Positions 3,284-25,627 of a stretch of 64,000 nt of DNA are shown piece after piece. Location: positions 25,048,001 through 25,112,000 of the forward strand of contig OX597825.1 in assembly GCA_951406725.2 (NCBI GenBank), given 5' to 3'. Below the pieces are notes generated by a model. It saw only the letters and a program-made list of their open reading frames with translations, ran no database searches and was not told the origin of the DNA. Origin of the DNA: Octopus vulgaris (taxonomy: Eukaryota). Each line of letters opens with the position of its first letter. Positions within the stretch are counted from its first letter, which is position 1. Position numbers and translations under genes: made by a program.

Positions 3284-3930
3284 GCATGCACACACACACA
3301 CACATACATACATACATATATATGTACGTGTATACACATGCACACTGACACACACACATGTGCACTAACAAACAAAAAGAACGCAACTCTGATAATAGAC
3401 AGAGTCAAAAACTATTTAAGACAATGAAAATTTTAGAAAAAAATAAATAAGTAAATGAGTGGAAATCAAACTGGTGTATTAAGTAATAAGGCACTAAATG
3501 AGAATGATTCTCCCCAGACACTATAATCAATATATATATATATTATATCATCATCATTTAGCGTCCGTTCTCCATGCTAGCATGGGTTGGACGGTTCAAC
3601 TGGGGTCTGTGAAGCTGGAAGGCTTCATCAGGCCCAGTCAGATCTGGCAGTGTTTCTACGGCTGGATGCCCTTCCTAACGCCAACCACTCGTGAGTGTAG
3701 TGGGTGCTTTTTACGTGCCACCCGCACAGGTGCCAGACAGAGCTGGCAAACGGCCATGAACGGATGGTGCTTTTACGTGTCATCGGCACGGGGCCAGGCG
3801 AGGCTGGCAACGGACACGAACGGATGGTGCTTTTACGTGCCACCAACACGGGGGCCAGACAGAGCTGGCAAACGGCCACAAAACGGATGGTGCTTTTACG
3901 TGTCACCGGCATGGGGGCCAGGCGATAGAG

Positions 3931-4180: not shown

Positions 4181-6686
4181 ATATATAGATAGATAGATAC
4201 AGGCATACTTCCGCCACAAATATTGGAAACATAAAATCATTAAAAAAACGTTAAAAGCACATAAAATCATGTTACTGTACAATAAATAAGAATAAAAGCG
4301 TATAAAATCATAGTAATATACATGTTAAGATACACACCATAAAGTAGTGTAGCTTAGTGAACGAAATCCAGAAATGCATTCATAAATAAAGTACAGAACT
4401 GGGAATGGTTATTATTGGTTCAGACAAGAGACAAGTAAATTCGATTTAAGCCGTGTTTCCTGGACCCAATTAATGATGTAGGGTGAGGTATGTCTGTATA
4501 TATACATCAGTGGCGAAGGGTAACTAGGAAACTAGGGAATGCAGTCCAGCCAGCCACACACAAATACACTGAGGTTTGTTGGGGAGCGGTGGGTTCCGAG
4601 TGTTCCACCCCTCCCCCGTTTTCCATGAGAAGTGTAGTATTATATGCTTTGAGATATATCATCATCATCATCATCGTTTAACATCCGCTTTCCATGCTAG
4701 CATGGGTTGGACGGTTCACCTGGGGTCTGGGAAGCCCGAAGGCTGCAGCAGGCCAGTCAGATCTGGCAGTGTTTCTACAGCTGGATGCCCTTCCTAACGC
4801 CAACCACTCCGTGAGTGTAGTGGGTGCTTTTTATGTGACACTGACACAGGTGCCAGACGAGGCTGGCGAACGGCCACGCTTGGATGGTGTTTTTTTTTAT
4901 GTGCCACGGGCACAGGTGCCAGACGAGGCTGGCAAACAGCCACGCTCGGATGGTGTTTTTTACGTGCCACCAGCACGGAGGCCAGGCGATGCGGTACTGG
5001 CTACGGCCACGTTCGGATGGTTTTCTTATGTGCCACCGGCACTGGTACCACAAAACTACAAATTCCATTGATGTTCATCGATTTTGATTTGATTTGATTT
5101 TGGAATCTGAAAATGAAAATAGTTTCCCCTCACTACAATGCACTATTTTGAAGTAATTAGTAACACACGAGAAATGTCCATACAAGCGTTTCCAAAATAT
5201 ATACAGGAATTCCGGGATTAGTGCGCAAAAAAGTTCTGAGACTGCCCCTTAATATAAGCGATGTCAAATTTGATTAGGTTGTTTCAATAAGTGTTTGTCT
5301 ACTTTTTCTGCACAATCCCTTTGAAGCATTAGCAGCACCTCATCTTCAGTTGCACACCAATCTTTCACGCATGAGGTCTGAGGTCATGTGCCACACCTAC
5401 CAGTGCTTAACTAGCATATTCAAAATAAATCGACAAAACTTCTTGAAATTCCACCAAAAGTCAAATGGCTCTCTTTACTCTTCTACTTGCTTCAGTCATT
5501 TGACTGTGGCCATGCTGGAGCACCGCCTTTAGTTGAATCAAATCGACCCCAGGACTTATTCTTTGTAAGCCTAGTACTTATTCTATCGGTCTCTTTTGCC
5601 GAAACACTAAGTTACGGGGACCTAAGCACACCAGCATCAGTTGTCAAGCAATGTTGGGGGGACAAACACAGATACACAATATACACACACACACATATAA
5701 ACATATATACGACGGGCTTCTTTCAGTTTCCATTTACCAAATCCACTCACAAGGCTTTGGTGGATCCGAGGCTATAGTAGAAGACACTTGCCCAAGGTGC
5801 CACGCAGTGGGACTGAACCCGGAACCACGTGGTTGGTAAGCAAGCCATTTACCACACAGCTGGAAATACTCCCACTTCTAATATCGTAGCCATATTGAAG
5901 TGGCGAGCTTGCAGATTTGATAGCAAGTCAGATGTGACGCTTTGCAGTATTTCATCCGTACTTACGCTCTCAGTTCAAATTCTGCCAGGGTTGACTTTGC
6001 CTTTCATCTGTTCAGGATCTATAAATTAAGTACCAGTCAAGCACTGGGGTCGATGTAATCGACTAGACCCATTCCCCCAAAATTTCAACCTTTGTGGCTG
6101 CATAGGAAAGGAATATTGTAGTCCTATTGAACCATGCCTATTTTTAAAGAACATTGCATATAGAAACGAAATCAGAAAACAATATTCCAAAATACGATGT
6201 GTATTTTTCAGTGGAGTCTAGCATGGCAAAGCTGATTTTAAGAAGGAGCATCAGTCAGATCATCCTAATTTTTCTTGCATTTTATAATTATAACTTTTTT
6301 CTAAAACAAAACAGCACTCCACGAATTTTGGGGGGGTTTTTACTGCTTCCTTGATTTTTTAATAGTATTTTATGTCTCATAAATATACAAGCTAAAGTGA
6401 ATTTTGTCCCGTTTCTTAATTACAAAAAAAACAATAGGTGCATTTTTTAAAGAATTTTATTTATTTGTGCCAGTTTTTAAGTATGCTTGGCCATAACTGA
6501 AAAACCAACATTTAGCCAGGAACTTTTCAGCACTGCCTCATATGTGTGTATATATGATGATGATGATATTTACAAGTATGTATGCACATGCATGTTTAGT
6601 TTTTGTACCTGTACATCTGTGTAGTGTAGGAAAAGACTGTTAGTCTGTATGGTCTCAACTATTTTCACATGCTTTCCCTCATACAC

Positions 6687-7390
6687 ATCATCATCATCAT
6701 TTAACGTCCGCTTTCCATGCTAGCATGGGTTGGACGGTTCAACTGGGGTCTGGGGAGCCCGAAGGCTGCACCAGTCCAGTCAGATCTGGCAGTGTTTCTA
6801 CAGCTGGATGCCCTTCCTAACGCCAACCACTCCGAGAGTGTAGTGGGTGATTTTATGTGCCACCGACACAGGTGCCAGACGAGGCTGGCAGACGGCCACG
6901 CTCGGATGGTGTTTTTTATGTGCCACCGACACAGGTGCCAGACGAGGCTGGCAGACGGCCACGCTCGAATGGTGTTTTTATGTGCCACCGACACAGGTGC
7001 CAGATGAGGCTGGCAAACGGCCACGATCGGATGGTGTTTGTTACGTGCCCACAGCACGGAGGCCAGTCGATGCGGTACTGGCTACGGCCACGTTCGGATG
7101 GTTTTCTTGTGTGCCACGTGCCACTGGCACTGGTACCACAAAGATACAAATTCCATTGATGTTCATCTATTTTGATTTGTTTTGATTTTCACTTGCCTCA
7201 TCAGGTCTTCACAAGTGTCACAAGAAGGAAGGTAAGCACAGGTGGACTGACTACGTCCCAGGTAGGGGCCACGGTACTGGCTATGGCCACGTTCGGATGG
7301 TTTCCTTGTGTCCCACCGGCACTGGTACCACAAAGATACAAATTCCATTAATGTTCATCTATTTTGATTTGTTTTGATTTGATTTGATAT
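6687..7390 (-). mobile_element. RTE 3'-UTR-derived repeat (representative; others start near 75(+), 715, 3547, 4659, 12700, 13430(+), 19929, 25330, 31167, 33058, 34766, 35466, 51158, 62594, 63640(+))
   Basis: Shares (cat)n-cgtttaacgtccgctttccatgctagcatgggttggacg... with the 3' end of the RTE at 22839; variable number of ~60-bp internal repeats. Confidence 0.85.
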
Positions 7391-9399: not shown

Positions 9400-9970
9400 A
9401 TATATTTTATTTCTACATACTTGAGAAGAGTGAATACTAAAAACTCATTATATGGACATAAAATAAGAACTATGATTCCTTACAAGGTTGCATGTTTAGC
9501 AAGCTATGTAACAAGTAGACACTAGCATTTATTTTATTGTATCTGGGGTGAGCCTTTCTGTTTTAATGTCTTATTAATTAACACACTCACCAGTTCGATT
9601 TCCACTCATTTACTTATTTATTTAAAAAAATTTTTTTTTCCTTGCAACTTCTTCAATAGTCGTTGACTCTGTCCATTATCAGAGCTGCATTCATTTTGTT
9701 TTTTTGTGCACATGTGTGTGCATCAGTGTGCATGTGTATACACATATGCATGTATGTATGTATTGTATGTATGCATATATATATATATGTATGTGTGTAT
9801 ATATATATTATATATATATATATATAAACTATTTATAAGTAAGGGCAAAAAAAAAAGTTCCTAATGCCAAAATATGCTGAAAATAGACATAACGTCAATA
9901 ACCATGTAATTTATCACTACAAGCATGTGTTTCGAAGACAGCCAACAGAAACTTCTAAAAAATCCCGTTA

Positions 9971-10031
9971 TTACCATATCGGACCCAATTTCAGAGTTAG
10001 TTCATAAGAACCTTCCCTTCATCAGTGATAA
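9971..10031 (-). ncRNA. Type I hammerhead ribozyme motif (inverted twin of 10267-10327)
   Basis: Reverse complement of 10267-10327; lies on the SLC35A4 sense strand. Confidence 0.75.
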
Positions 10032-10266
10032 ATGCGGCAAAGAAATAAGTGAAATACTTACTTATACCCACGGAAGAAGCGAGCACTAAGTCATGAGTAC
10101 AATTAAGTACCCCAAATATATCCAAAATAGAAACTCTCTAGCCCATCTCGAGACACGTGTGATTCAAACTGAAAAACTCTCGTAAAGTGAGAGAGTCCGG
10201 AAGTGAACACTATTAAATTAACATCCGTGGGTATAAGTAAGTATTTCACTTATTTCTTTGCTGCAT

Positions 10267-10327
10267 TTATCACTGATGAAGGGAAGGTTCTTATGAACTA
10301 ACTCTGAAATTGGGTCCGATATGGTAA
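10267..10327 (+). ncRNA. Type I hammerhead ribozyme motif
   Basis: UUAUCA-CUGAUGA-AGGG aag GUUC uuau GAAC uaa CUCU-GAAA-UUGGGUCCG-AUA^UGGUAA. Stem I 6 bp; self-complementary stem III AUUGGGUCCGAU; AUA site after 10321. Confidence 0.75.
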
Positions 10328-10942
10328 TAACAGGATGTTTTGGAAGTTTCTGTTGGCTTTCTTCGAAACACATGCTTGTAGTGATAAATTACATGGTTAT
10401 TGATGTTGTGTCTATTTTTGGCATATTTTGGCATTAGAAATTTTTTCTTTTGCCCTTACTTATAAATTGTTTATAAATTTAACCTTTAAAGGTACTTTTT
10501 AATATGCTGGCCATTGAGAGAATTTTTTTCGAAAAATTTTATCCTACATTTGATGTTAATTTAATAGTGTTCACTTCCAGACTCTCTCACTTTACGAGTG
10601 TTTAAGAAGAGTACCTAGCCATAGAAACCATGCCAAGGCAGACATTGGAGCATGATGTAGTCCTTGAATTGGTCAGATTCTGTTGAACTGTCCAACCCAT
10701 GCCAGCATGGAAGATGGATGTTGAAAGATGATGCCGATGATTTAACATACTTCATACACTGAGTTCTAATTCTCCAATTTATGCCCCCAAACCTATACCC
10801 ACCAAAGTGACCCCTCCCCCACTACAAGGCACACATGTACACACACAATCATGCACACATACACAGGTGCGTGTATGTATATGCGTGCACACACACACAC
10901 ACACACACTGGCACAAACACAGAGGCCAGAAACACTGATTAC

Positions 10943-22838: not shown

Positions 22839-23767
22839 TCATCATCATCATCATCATCATTTAGCGTCCGTTTTCCATGCTAGCATGGGTTGGACGGTTC
22901 TGCTGGGGTCTGTGAAGCCAGAAGGCTTCATCAGGCCCAGTCAAATCTGGCAGTGTTTCTACGGCTGGATGCCCTTCCTAACGCCAACCACTCCGTGAGT
23001 GTAGTGGGTGCTTTTTACGTGCCACCCGCACTGGTGCCAGACAGAGCTGGCAAACGGCCACGAACGGATGGTGCTTTTTATGTGCCACCGGCACGAGGGC
23101 CAGGCGAGGCTGGCAACGGACACGAAACGGGGCGGTGCTGGCAACGGTCGCGAAACGGAAAGTTCTCTTACATGCCACCGGCACTGGTAACACATCTGCA
23201 ATTTCCATTGATCGATTTCCATTGATCGATTTCGATTCTGATCCTCACTTGCCTCAATGGGTTTTCACAAGCAGAGTTTCGACATGCCACCGGCACTGGT
23301 AGCACATCCGCAATTTCCATTGATCGATTACGATTCTGATCCTCACTTGCCTCAACACGTCTTCACAAGTAGAGTTTTGTGTCCCAAGAAGGGAAGGTAT
23401 GCATACGTAGGCTGGCTCCATCCCATGTAGAAGGCCACGGGTTGTGGACTCACTTGTCCTGCCGGGTCTTCTCGCGCACAGCACACTTCCAGAGGTCTCG
23501 GTCTCTAGTCATTTCCTCAGTGAGACCTAAAGTTCGAAGGTCGTGCTTCACCACCTCGTCCCAGGTTTTCCTGGGTCTGCCTCTTCCACAGGTTCCCTCA
23601 ACCGCTAGGGCGTGGCACTTTTTCACACAACTATCTTCATCCATTCTCGCCACATGACCATACCAGCGCAAACGTCTCTCTTGCACACCACAACTGATGC
23701 TTCTTAGGTCCAGCTTTTCTCTCAAGGTACTTACAGAGAAAAGCTGGACCTAAGAAAAGCTGGACCT
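22839..23767 (-). mobile_element. 5'-truncated RTE-clade LINE (ORF C-terminus, 3' UTR, (GAT)n tail)
   Basis: ORF 23450-23725 has RRLRWYGHVARM...GRGRPRKTW...DRDLW, the typical RTE C-terminus. The 3' UTR has ~60-bp sub-repeats and ends in (GAT)n. Short 5' inversion at 23737-23767. Confidence 0.9.
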
Positions 23768-23901
23768 ATATATGTATATCTATACATATACATATATACA
23801 TGTATATATGTAGGGAGAATTTACGAAAAAACAAAAGTCGAAGACAGGTGGTGTACAAAGCAAACAGATGTATTAGTATAACGCTCAGGAATAGAAAAAG
23901 T

Positions 23902-23937
23902 CTTTTACGTTTCGAGCCTATGCTCTTCTACAGAAAG
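23902..23937 (-). ncRNA. Minimal hammerhead-like motif with non-canonical core (CUGUAGAA)
   Basis: CUUU-CUGUAGA-A-GAGC AUAG GCUC-GAAA-C-GUA^AAAG. Same repeat family as ~30986-31150; element ~23811-24041. Confidence 0.5.
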
Positions 23938-24221
23938 GGACACAGAAAAAACAAGGAGAGAAACAAGGAGAGAAAAAAAAGTGTGTAGTGGCTAACAATC
24001 TATCATGGTGTGTGACCCTCGGACATAAGGGTCACACACCATATATATATATATATAATATAAGGGATATTAGCCAACCGAATATGGCTAGGGACAGGGC
24101 AGGGTGGTGGGGGTGTCACTGTTGCATTTAGCCCCAGGCGAACATCAACGTCACCAGATAGGCCTGACGCCATCACGGCGTCCTTTATCTTGCAAAGGGA
24201 GATCACCCACCAAGAAGCCGA

Positions 24222-24275
24222 TACCACACACGGACCTAGGTTTCAAGGTGTGTTGCCTATTATCAACGTGTGGTA
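24222..24275 (-). ncRNA. Type I hammerhead ribozyme motif, U3-A8 core variant (copy 1)
   Basis: UACCACACG-UUGAUAA-UAGGCAACACACCUU-GAAA-CCUAG-GUC^CGUGUGUGGUA. Stem I CACACG/CGUGUG, stem II AGG/CCU, palindromic stem III ACCUAGGU, GUC site. Confidence 0.75.
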
Positions 24276-24577
24276 GGCATCACTTCTCGATGAACGACCA
24301 ACTTTGCAAGATACATATAAGGATTTTCAAGTAAATACATTTACTGATTTCGAAAATCCGTTCGACAGCAATAATAATTCTCTAAATGAGATATAGACAG
24401 TGACTGCTCCGTAATATAAGGGATATTAGCCAACCGAATATAGCTAGGGACAGGGCAGGGTGGTGGGGGTGTCACTGTTGCATTTAGCCCCAGGCGAACA
24501 TCAACGTCACCAGATAGGCCTGACGCCATCACGGCGTCCTTTATCTTGCAAAGGGAGATCACCCACCAAGAAGCCGA

Positions 24578-24631
24578 TACCACACACGGACCTAGGTTTC
24601 AAGGTGTGTTGCCTATTATCAACGTGTGGTA
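24578..24631 (-). ncRNA. Type I hammerhead ribozyme motif, U3-A8 core variant (copy 2)
   Basis: Same sequence as 24222-24275, 356 nt away. Confidence 0.75.
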
Positions 24632-24986
24632 GGCATCGCTTCTCGATGAACGACCAACTTTGCAAGATACATATAAGGATTTTCAAGTAAATACATTTAC
24701 TGATTTCGAAAATCCGTTCGACAGCAATAATAATTCTCTAAATGAGATATAGACAGTGACTGCTCCGCCTGGGGCTAAATGCAACAGTGACACCCCCACC
24801 ACCCTGCCCTGTTCCTAGCCATATTCGGTTGGCTAATATCCCTTATATTACGGAGCAGTCACTGTCTATATCTCATTTAGAGAATTATTATTGCTGTCGA
24901 ACGGATTTTCGAAATCAGTAAATGTATTTACTTGAAAATCCTTATATGTATCTTGCAAAGTTGGTCGTTCATCGAGAAGCGATGCC

Positions 24987-25040
24987 TACCACACATTGAT
25001 AATAGGCAACACACCTTGAAACCTAGGTCCGTGTGTGGTA
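24987..25040 (+). ncRNA. Type I hammerhead ribozyme motif, U3-A8 core variant (inverted copy 3)
   Basis: Same motif with G>A at 24995, which breaks the stem I pair next to the core. Confidence 0.6.
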
Positions 25041-25627
25041 TCGGCTTCTTGGTGGGTGATCTCCCTTTGCAAGATAAAGAACGCCGTGATGGCGTCAGGC
25101 CTATCTGGTGATGTTGATGTTCACCTGGGGCTAAATGCAACAGTGACACCCCCACCACCCTGCCCTGTCCCTAGCCATATTCGGTTGGCTAATATCCCTT
25201 ATATTACGGAGCAGTCACTGTCTATATCTCATTTAGAGAATTATTATTGCTATATATATATACATCTATATATATACATTGGTGCAGATGTATACATATA
25301 TACATACACACACACACATACATATATTATCATCATCATCGTTTAACGTCCGTTCTCCATGCTAGCATGGGTTGAACGATTCGACCGGGGATCTGGGAAG
25401 CCAGAAGGCTGCACCAGGCTCCAGTCTTATCTGGCAATGTTTCTACAGCTGGATGCCCTTCCTAACGCCAACCACTCCGTGAGTGTAGTGGGTGCTTTTT
25501 ACGTGCCACCTGCACAGGTGCCAGGCGAGGCTGGCCGTTGCCAGCCTCGCCTGGCAACGGCCACGGTCGGATTGGTGTATTTTACGTGCCACCGGCACGG
25601 AAGCCAGTCGAGGCGGCCCTGGCATTG

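Follow-up and report, generated by a model that had tools for sequence, protein, structure and literature searches.

A probable retrozyme family of 356-nt units in Octopus vulgaris with insertion ends resembling those of Penelope-like elements

A 64-kb stretch of Octopus vulgaris DNA (contig OX597825.1; hereafter the window, meaning the whole of these 64,000 nucleotides) contains an array of a 356-nt unit that probably belongs to a dispersed family of non-LTR retrozymes, moved in trans by a Penelope-like element (PLE) that carries an endonuclease. The retrozyme class itself has already been described, and the value of the present family lies in the structure of its insertions, by which a retrozyme can be tied to the PLE reaction. 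Non-LTR retrozymes have been described from coral, mussel (about 350–390 bp) and axolotl (330 and 350 bp), with PLEs suggested as their mobilisers (PMC7229834). In vertebrates they have been tied to the pseudo-LTRs (pLTRs) of PLEs in a preprint that, as it presents its survey, samples no mollusc and leaves the mobilisation mechanism open (10.64898/2026.07.22.740005). For the giant squid genome, hammerhead matches are given in PMC6962438 as a count without analysis. The initial annotation of the window knew of no cephalopod description of the family; our literature search, which covered mainly open papers, likewise found neither a cephalopod retrozyme family nor a retrozyme for which tails or paired start sites are reported. 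The questions left open in the papers cited are which enzyme and template spread animal retrozymes, and how PLEs make insertions that are tandem, inverted and tailed.

Results

Architecture of the array

Unit positions are numbered in the hammerhead sense, with unit 356 as the final base of the right arm (25251) and the predicted ribozyme cut after unit 134. The array consists of a 712-bp arm of two 356-bp units and a 486-bp arm in head-to-head orientation within (TA)n, which adjoins both outer ends (Table 1). For the left arm, Tandem Repeats Finder reports 2.0 copies of the unit at 24056–24767 with 99% matches. The right arm (24766–25251) is the reverse complement of the unit (98–99% complementary) and measures 484 bp if the 2-nt CG overlap at 24766–24767 is left out. 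On the plus strand the left arm is antisense, with its 3' end facing outward at unit 311, and the right arm is in the sense orientation, with its 3' end facing outward at 356, so that the 5' ends meet inside. The two direct repeats, the 484-bp inverted copy with its CG dinucleotide and the (TA)n surroundings had all been noted in the initial annotation and are borne out. Its description of the copies as circular permutations fits this locus, but not the family, in which the 3' ends are fixed at two sites and only the inner 5' ends vary.

The unit has a GC content of 45.5% and, as had been proposed, no recognisable protein; in a concatemer, the longest stop-to-stop frame is 85 aa in sense and 80 aa in antisense. 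No ORF combining reverse transcriptase (RT) and GIY-YIG was found, either by a frame scan of the unit or by tblastn with PLE proteins on the 64-kb window. The four hairpins named in the initial annotation are all present in the unit, and the hairpin at unit 8–46 may be regarded as a candidate RT-binding element. At 356 bp, with up to about 2.9 units per arm, the repeat lies in the size range of tandem retrozyme units (150–450 bp). Measured against the family majority, the three unit copies carry 7 changes over about 1200 bases, and all of these are C>T or G>A, from which we conclude that the insertion is young and that the copies are not assembly duplicates. Public runs under five organism labels contain parts of the stretch, mostly in small shares. 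Among the runs listed none is on record as RNA, and the four that were compared with the stretch consist of contigs only, which carry no information about transcription, strand or circles.

Table 1. Features of the retrozyme array, in window coordinates
Feature	Position	Strand	Basis or remark
(TA)n target tract, left	24040..24055	.	
Left arm, two units, hammerhead sense on minus; outer 3' end unit 311 (no tail), inner 5' end unit 312	24056..24767	-	
Type I hammerhead, copy 1; stem I CACACG/CGUGUG, core UUGAUAA, helix III ACCUAGGU; predicted cut 24233/24232	24222..24275	-	motif scan, covariation
Type I hammerhead, copy 2; predicted cut 24589/24588	24578..24631	-	motif scan
Head-to-head (5'-5') junction, 2-nt CG overlap	24766..24767	.	
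Right arm, hammerhead sense on plus; runs from unit 227 on and includes one full unit; outer 3' end unit 356 (with tail)	24766..25251	+	
Hairpin directly 3' of second start site, unit 8-46	24903..24941	+	one compensatory pair in family B
Long rod, unit 54-177, hammerhead at tip; many 5' truncations at rod base	24949..25072	+	
Hammerhead, copy 3; predicted cut 25029/25030	24987..25040	+	motif scan
GACGCC/GGCGTC hairpin, unit 182-198	25077..25093	+	
TAGCCA/TGGCTA hairpin directly 5' of first start site, unit 277-296	25172..25191	+	
Penelope-type tail of 45 nt, lying between the first (unit 309-311) and second (unit 348-356) start sites; right end only	25207..25251	+	
(TA)n target tract, right	25252..25262	.	

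Hammerhead ribozyme and RNA fold

A motif scan of the unit identified stem I CACACG/CGUGUG, the core UUGAUAA, GAAA, helix III ACCUAGGU and GUC, i.e., a hammerhead with a U3–A8 core and a palindromic helix III. The U3–A8 pair is a described covariant of C3–G8 in the PLE ribozymes of PMC4209133. With its short helix III and palindromic loop, the hammerhead has the layout that is canonical for type I ribozymes of metazoans, and by analogy it would work as a dimer. Rfam at the gathering score gave no match in the 64-kb window, and Hammerhead_HH9 reached 19 and 17.4 bits, below its cut-off of 52; the hammerhead call therefore rests on the motif scan together with covariation. Across the 45 loci of the family that cover it, the core is nearly invariant. 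One type I hammerhead per unit with a cut after GUC had been annotated previously, and the two positions given for the cut (24233/24232 and 24589/24588) agree with ours, but in the third copy a G>A change at 24995 breaks the stem I pair adjoining the core.

The strand in the hammerhead sense is predicted to fold at -120.8 kcal/mol (z = -5.7), a value that none of 100 shuffles equalled, and the opposite strand has z = -3.0. In the predicted minimum-energy fold of the monomer the hammerhead core is mispaired, which counts against the ribozyme reading. Two hammerhead domains are predicted to co-fold via the palindrome at -39.0 kcal/mol, as compared with -34.4 kcal/mol for two monomers. Eight of the nine Xenopus retrozyme dimers reported in 10.64898/2026.07.22.740005 gave no cleavage in vitro, and this counts against an active-ribozyme step.

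Copies in the genome and their insertion ends

A search of the 2.8-Gb genome with the unit returned at least 1520 candidates, and a 75-nt query at least 321. The dispersed copies are 92–100% identical, and the best 40 full units, which were scored, are 94–100% identical with the exception of one at 89%. The loci read comprise 40 distinct ones chosen by full-unit score, a choice that inflates arm length, and 15 that were obtained via the short query and not chosen for length; duplicates (L002, L005, L022 and L023) were dropped before all counts. Tabulated by ends and flanks, the copies in this genome lie mostly in (TA)n, and their number and 92–100% identity, together with the lack of an ORF, support the earlier view of the element as young and non-autonomous. 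Head-to-head arms are found in 28 of the 40 first-set loci and in 9 of the 15 short-query loci, with an inverted 5'-truncated copy adjoining the 5' end. An LTR–internal–LTR layout is absent from all 55 loci. A plant-type LTR retrozyme, with a type III hammerhead in two LTRs and a 4-bp target-site duplication, was rejected on the grounds that the ribozyme is of type I and lies in tandem units.

The outer 3' ends are concentrated at two sites 45 nt apart. Among the 68 such ends of the 40-locus set, 65 lie at unit 309–311 or 348–356, and 61 are flanked by (TA)n, where any target-site duplication is unreadable. Random circular permutation of the ends was rejected on account of these two fixed sites, and a 3' end at the ribozyme cut was rejected as well (0/68 outer ends). 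One tailed and one tailless end are combined in 27 of the 28 inverted loci of the same set, in all nine inverted loci among the 15 not chosen for length, and in a further 7/7 known from BLAST coordinates only, for a total of 43/44. The two end types occur at about the same frequency, so that one of each would be expected in half of the loci if the ends were chosen independently (p = 3e-12 against 0.5). The exception in this family is L014, with ends at 11 and 309; the complex locus L030, which holds several insertions, was entered in the pairing count by its first insertion.

The inner 5' ends vary, and the overlap or gap at the joint is within 7 nt in 25/28 loci. Of 26 arm pieces in the short-query set, 11 end at unit 170–200 (the rod base), three at 201–235 and one at 135–169. 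This clustering, judged against a uniform null that is crude, fits RT stalling on structure in the hammerhead-sense RNA. Arm lengths within a locus show no clear correlation (rho 0.34, p 0.08). A piece at L135:1870–1995 is 71% identical to unit 13–138, and loose contig ends near the TAGCCA hairpin occur in other runs; both hint at further sister families.

Copying across the ribozyme cut

In all 75 cases where an arm crosses the cut site, it does so without an indel at unit 131–138 (55 loci; one 71% piece in L135 was left out of the count). In the first set, which is biased to long arms, 56/78 arm pieces cross the cut, 11 of them twice; in the length-unselected set eight arms reach into the rod, and seven of these pass the cut. 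At 16 subfamily sites, agreements outnumber disagreements by 481 to 24 between arms and by 271 to 4 between tandem units, as compared with 27382 to 18116 between loci. Thirteen of the 24 arm–arm disagreements come from L030 and four from L010. The latter locus (G000:C21:512569-513167) has arms that differ at four subfamily sites, one of them resembling a mosaic of two subfamilies, which suggests two RNA molecules or a template switch within one insertion. Locus-private variants were counted in 54 loci, with L030 left out; four are common to both arms and three to tandem units, and 101 and 66, respectively, are unshared. Two variants that are private among 40 loci are not so among 55, and "private" may here mean rare. 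The presence of new variants in every unit points to a one-unit bottleneck, and the multimers appear to have been made at insertion rather than by later unequal crossover.

An older sister family

A weak blastn match of 41 nt beside an unrelated PLE led to an older sister family, B, with units of about 350–358 nt (L070:6580-6818, L075-L094, L178-L182). The search with family B gave at least 2621 candidates, of which the best 40 were scored and are 88–92% identical to the query. Family A, to which the array belongs, and family B are collinear around the whole unit at 55–59% identity. In a comparison of seven A and six B units, the U3–A8 core of A is replaced by C3–G8 in B, the first pair of helix II is A–U in A and G–C in B, and the helix III palindrome is CUAG in A and mostly UCGA in B. 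Two helix III pairs are changed on both sides, as is one pair in the hairpin at unit 8–46. With the structure drawn on family A, 92% of cells are paired, compared with 26–42% when partners are slid; the number of pairs changed on both sides is reached by 85/500 shuffles, and the data represent one A-versus-B contrast rather than many independent events. The compensatory changes support a ribozyme under selection, as distinct from proving its activity. An RNAalifold consensus of A and B recovered stem I and several hairpins, mispaired the core, and lost the long rod where the alignment is gapped; in family B, the GACGCC hairpin falls out of register. The outer ends of family B fall at the same two sites, with one of each in 5/6 inverted loci where both ends are readable (L179 and L180 counting as one), the exception being L182 with both ends at the tail site.

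Penelope-like elements of the genome

A GIY-YIG search of the genome gave at least 6136 candidates, of which the best 150 were scored, many in open 781-aa frames, and 44 PLE loci were read. The 781-aa family (L061-L068, L074, L139-L168, L175-L177) contains GIY-YIG and RVT_1 (just below the Pfam cut-off), and its frames include RYLDD and a CxxxxCxxC linker, a motif that according to PMC8557442 marks the Neptune and Nematis PLEs and by which the family would be assigned as Neptune/Nematis-like. An overlapping upstream frame of up to 479 aa has no Pfam match. Eight of the ORFs are 95–99% identical; the family is young and abundant and, to judge from this identity, possibly still active.

Its pLTRs end in (TA)n, and in the inverted loci with both ends in view there is always one tailed and one tailless end (7/7). 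As for family A, these PLEs are thus young, inserted in (TA)n, subject to a one-tail rule and equipped with a UUGAUAA hammerhead core. They differ from it in that the tail is about 35–40 nt long and of other sequence, and in that the hammerhead is of the minimal kind with an ACAUGU helix III. We regard the 781-aa family as a candidate partner PLE for the retrozyme. In this small sample of 44 PLE loci, blastn with the unit gave no pLTR match, the one hit being the 41-nt match to the separate family B copy. A tblastn search with PLE proteins of the window and of the loci retrieved for families A and B detected no ORF-linked unit. A second PLE family (L070:2821-5979) is itself inserted head-to-head in (TA)n, and just one of its ends carries extra sequence; L034 and L058 look related to it.

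Discussion

Proposed insertion mechanism

In the mechanism that we propose, a tandem copy would be transcribed in the hammerhead sense, the weak helix III would allow two ribozymes to cleave as a dimer, and the monomer would be ligated into a circle. Both strands of a (TA)n tract would be cut by the PLE protein, a step that is taken from knowledge of PLEs and fits the ends seen. The genomic ends show separate priming by the two 3' ends of the break: the minus-strand cDNA of each starts at an internal AU-rich position in the RNA, at unit 309–311 for one and at 348–356 for the other, and almost never at the same site for both. The genomic copies further show that the RT passes the ribozyme cut precisely and proceeds for up to about 2.9 units, with frequent stops at the base of the long hairpin, and that the two truncated cDNAs are then joined 5' to 5', the joint having an overlap or filler of a few bases, which leaves head-to-head arms with a tail on one end. 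From the strict one-of-each pairing it follows that the two priming events are coupled.

Several of these features have precedents among PLEs. PLE insertions are known to carry a tail at one of their ends (PMC8557442; PMC3846280). As reported in PMC11167929, the anole PLE cuts and extends both target strands in vitro, its RT starts at two internal RNA sites flanking the tail, RNA 3' of the start sites is required, and a dimer is predicted. According to the same source ribozyme cleavage is not needed in vitro and the start site does not differ between strands, and both observations count against our explanation. A more tentative proposal, which we would put somewhat below even chances, is that a dimeric Penelope RT-endonuclease acts on one covalently closed retrozyme RNA, with its active sites at the two start sites 45 nt apart. 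Each end of the cut (TA)n target would then prime at one of these sites, and the two enzymes would travel round a single circle. The one-of-each pairing could thereby reflect an asymmetric dimer that acts on one RNA.

Nature of the template and alternative explanations

The initial annotation had put forward a Penelope-type RT that copies a circular or multimeric RNA, and this fits the precise read-through, the single haplotype per insertion, the shared Penelope tail signature and the (TA)n target. A circular RNA template has been proposed for retrozymes in PMC7229834. Given the rest of our explanation, we consider such a template the likeliest source of the homogeneous multimers, and a reasonably probable one. 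An alternative that retains the same dual priming by a PLE is that the template is an uncleaved linear multimer transcribed from a tandem source locus, with the ribozyme slow or acting at some other stage, and no circle. Unprocessed RNA is the main PLE substrate in vitro according to PMC11167929, precise read-through is equally well accounted for, and some unit-to-unit differences at subfamily sites do occur (4/275). Against this, new subfamily changes are present in all units of an arm (271/275), which would demand a one-unit bottleneck or steady homogenisation of the source. Moreover, one linear molecule holding both arms without overlap would need 4.1 units here and 4.2 for L095, compared with about 2.9 for the longest arm among the best 40 loci per search; arrays may collapse in assembly, and two RNA molecules from one source would lift the length limit. 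We judge a linear multimer to be unlikely, while giving it appreciable weight.

Rather than an independent RNA replicon, the unit could also be a pseudo-LTR stump belonging to some autonomous PLE not seen here, or else a satellite produced by unequal crossover. Xenopus retrozymes match PLE pLTRs, and local tandem amplification has been proposed, in 10.64898/2026.07.22.740005, and the PLE sample used here is small (44 loci read; best 150 of 6136 candidates scored). However, in the loci retrieved for both families the tail is followed by the unit again and not by an ORF, and PLE-type ORF fragments were detected by tblastn only at the flank of L014 (also fetched as L130) and at L075, the neighbour that led to family B. 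The insertions are dispersed and have their own ends, and the two families are collinear around the whole unit. A stump or satellite is therefore improbable, and an ancient origin of the unit from a pLTR is possible.

About as improbable, and slightly more so, is that the RT copies cleaved linear monomers and jumps from end to end, imitating a circle. Mosaic arms at L010 and short internal template switches in L018, L105, L108 and L138 would be in line with such jumps. The cut is nevertheless crossed without indel throughout, and from this precise read-through we conclude that cleaved linear monomers are not the main template. In addition, none of the 26 length-unselected arm pieces has its 5' end at unit 130–140, and in the first set 7/78 5' ends lie at 130–143, a mild excess at most.

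Fold-back, in which one cDNA primes or switches onto itself so that its first arm serves as the DNA template of the second, would account for the haplotype common to both arms, and self-priming has been proposed for head-to-head PLE repeats in PMC3846280. It requires, however, that one arm contain the other, and 22 of the 28 simple two-arm loci (multi-piece loci being omitted), the present locus among them, fit neither order; for these 22 it was rejected. Fold-back also leaves unexplained why both outer ends lie at RT start sites joined to (TA)n, and we regard it as very improbable. Finally, inverted repeats within (TA)n are difficult to assemble, but the chance that the array is an assembly artefact or a chance repeat is negligible, since 7 sites distinguish its three copies, dozens of loci on many contigs show this architecture with other inner junctions, and contigs from other public runs contain pieces of it, one carrying its own inversion joint.

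Comparison with known retrozymes and PLEs

The family resembles metazoan non-LTR retrozymes as described in PMC7229834 in its few-hundred-nt non-coding head-to-tail units, one type I hammerhead in each, a GC content below 50% and a strongly self-paired RNA. By the description in the same source, axolotl HHR_Amex2 is similar in having a two-pair helix III with a palindromic tetraloop and a U–U mismatch at the base of helix II. Unlike the metazoan retrozymes, as far as these are described there, the insertions studied here are mostly head-to-head in (TA)n, with fixed 3' ends and a one-sided tail, and the core is U3–A8; such cores also occur in the PLEs of PMC4209133. The likeness to endonuclease-bearing PLEs (PMC8557442, PMC3846280 and PMC11167929, as far as these describe them) extends to partial tandem copies, a truncated copy in inverted orientation at the 5' end, (TA)n targets, a tail at one end (30–40 bp in PLEs), two internal start sites and a type I hammerhead upstream of the tail. 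Unlike these elements, the unit has no ORF, its 45-nt tail is followed by the next unit and not by UTR and ORF, and its hammerhead is canonical rather than minimal. It also differs from the PLE pLTRs sampled in this genome, which have no sequence match to it.

That PLEs mobilise retrozymes is also the conclusion of the vertebrate preprint (10.64898/2026.07.22.740005). The case made there is that retrozymes and PLEs occur together and share pLTR homology in vertebrates, insects and one coral; ours is built on the anatomy of insertion ends. The PLE tail signature on an ORF-less retrozyme supports the proposed PLE-driven spread of such RNAs, and the use of two start sites, one per DNA end, bears on a point that in vitro PLE work did not settle. 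A 356-nt RNA and an intact candidate enzyme in one genome provide a small system in which a circular versus a linear template, and coupled priming, could be addressed. If the asymmetric-dimer reading is true, one-tail pairing would be the footprint of the dimer and a general rule of PLE integration, and the insertions would be direct genomic evidence for an animal circular ribozyme RNA as a retrotransposition template.

Other repeats in the window

Directly to the left of the array, at 23812–24043 on the minus strand, lies a different high-copy repeat (at least 3262 candidates; best 40 scored, 94–96% identical). It contains a degenerate hammerhead-like motif near 23900–23935 and a short inverted repeat at 24004–24044, and in eight loci read it has a fixed end, corresponding to 23812, beside simple repeats. 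This repeat is probably the truncated end of another Penelope-type family. A third hammerhead family is present at about 9816–10602 as a head-to-head pair, with cores at 10025 (minus) and 10273 (plus) and 258-bp arms that are 94% identical; it has a CUGAUGA core and an AUA triplet, and a similar motif is seen in L042/L062. Finally, a common repeat with internal tandem units of 63–66 bp, which we take to be probably a SINE, occurs at 3703–3921, 4828–4961, 6851–7049, 23007–23126 and 25326–25618.
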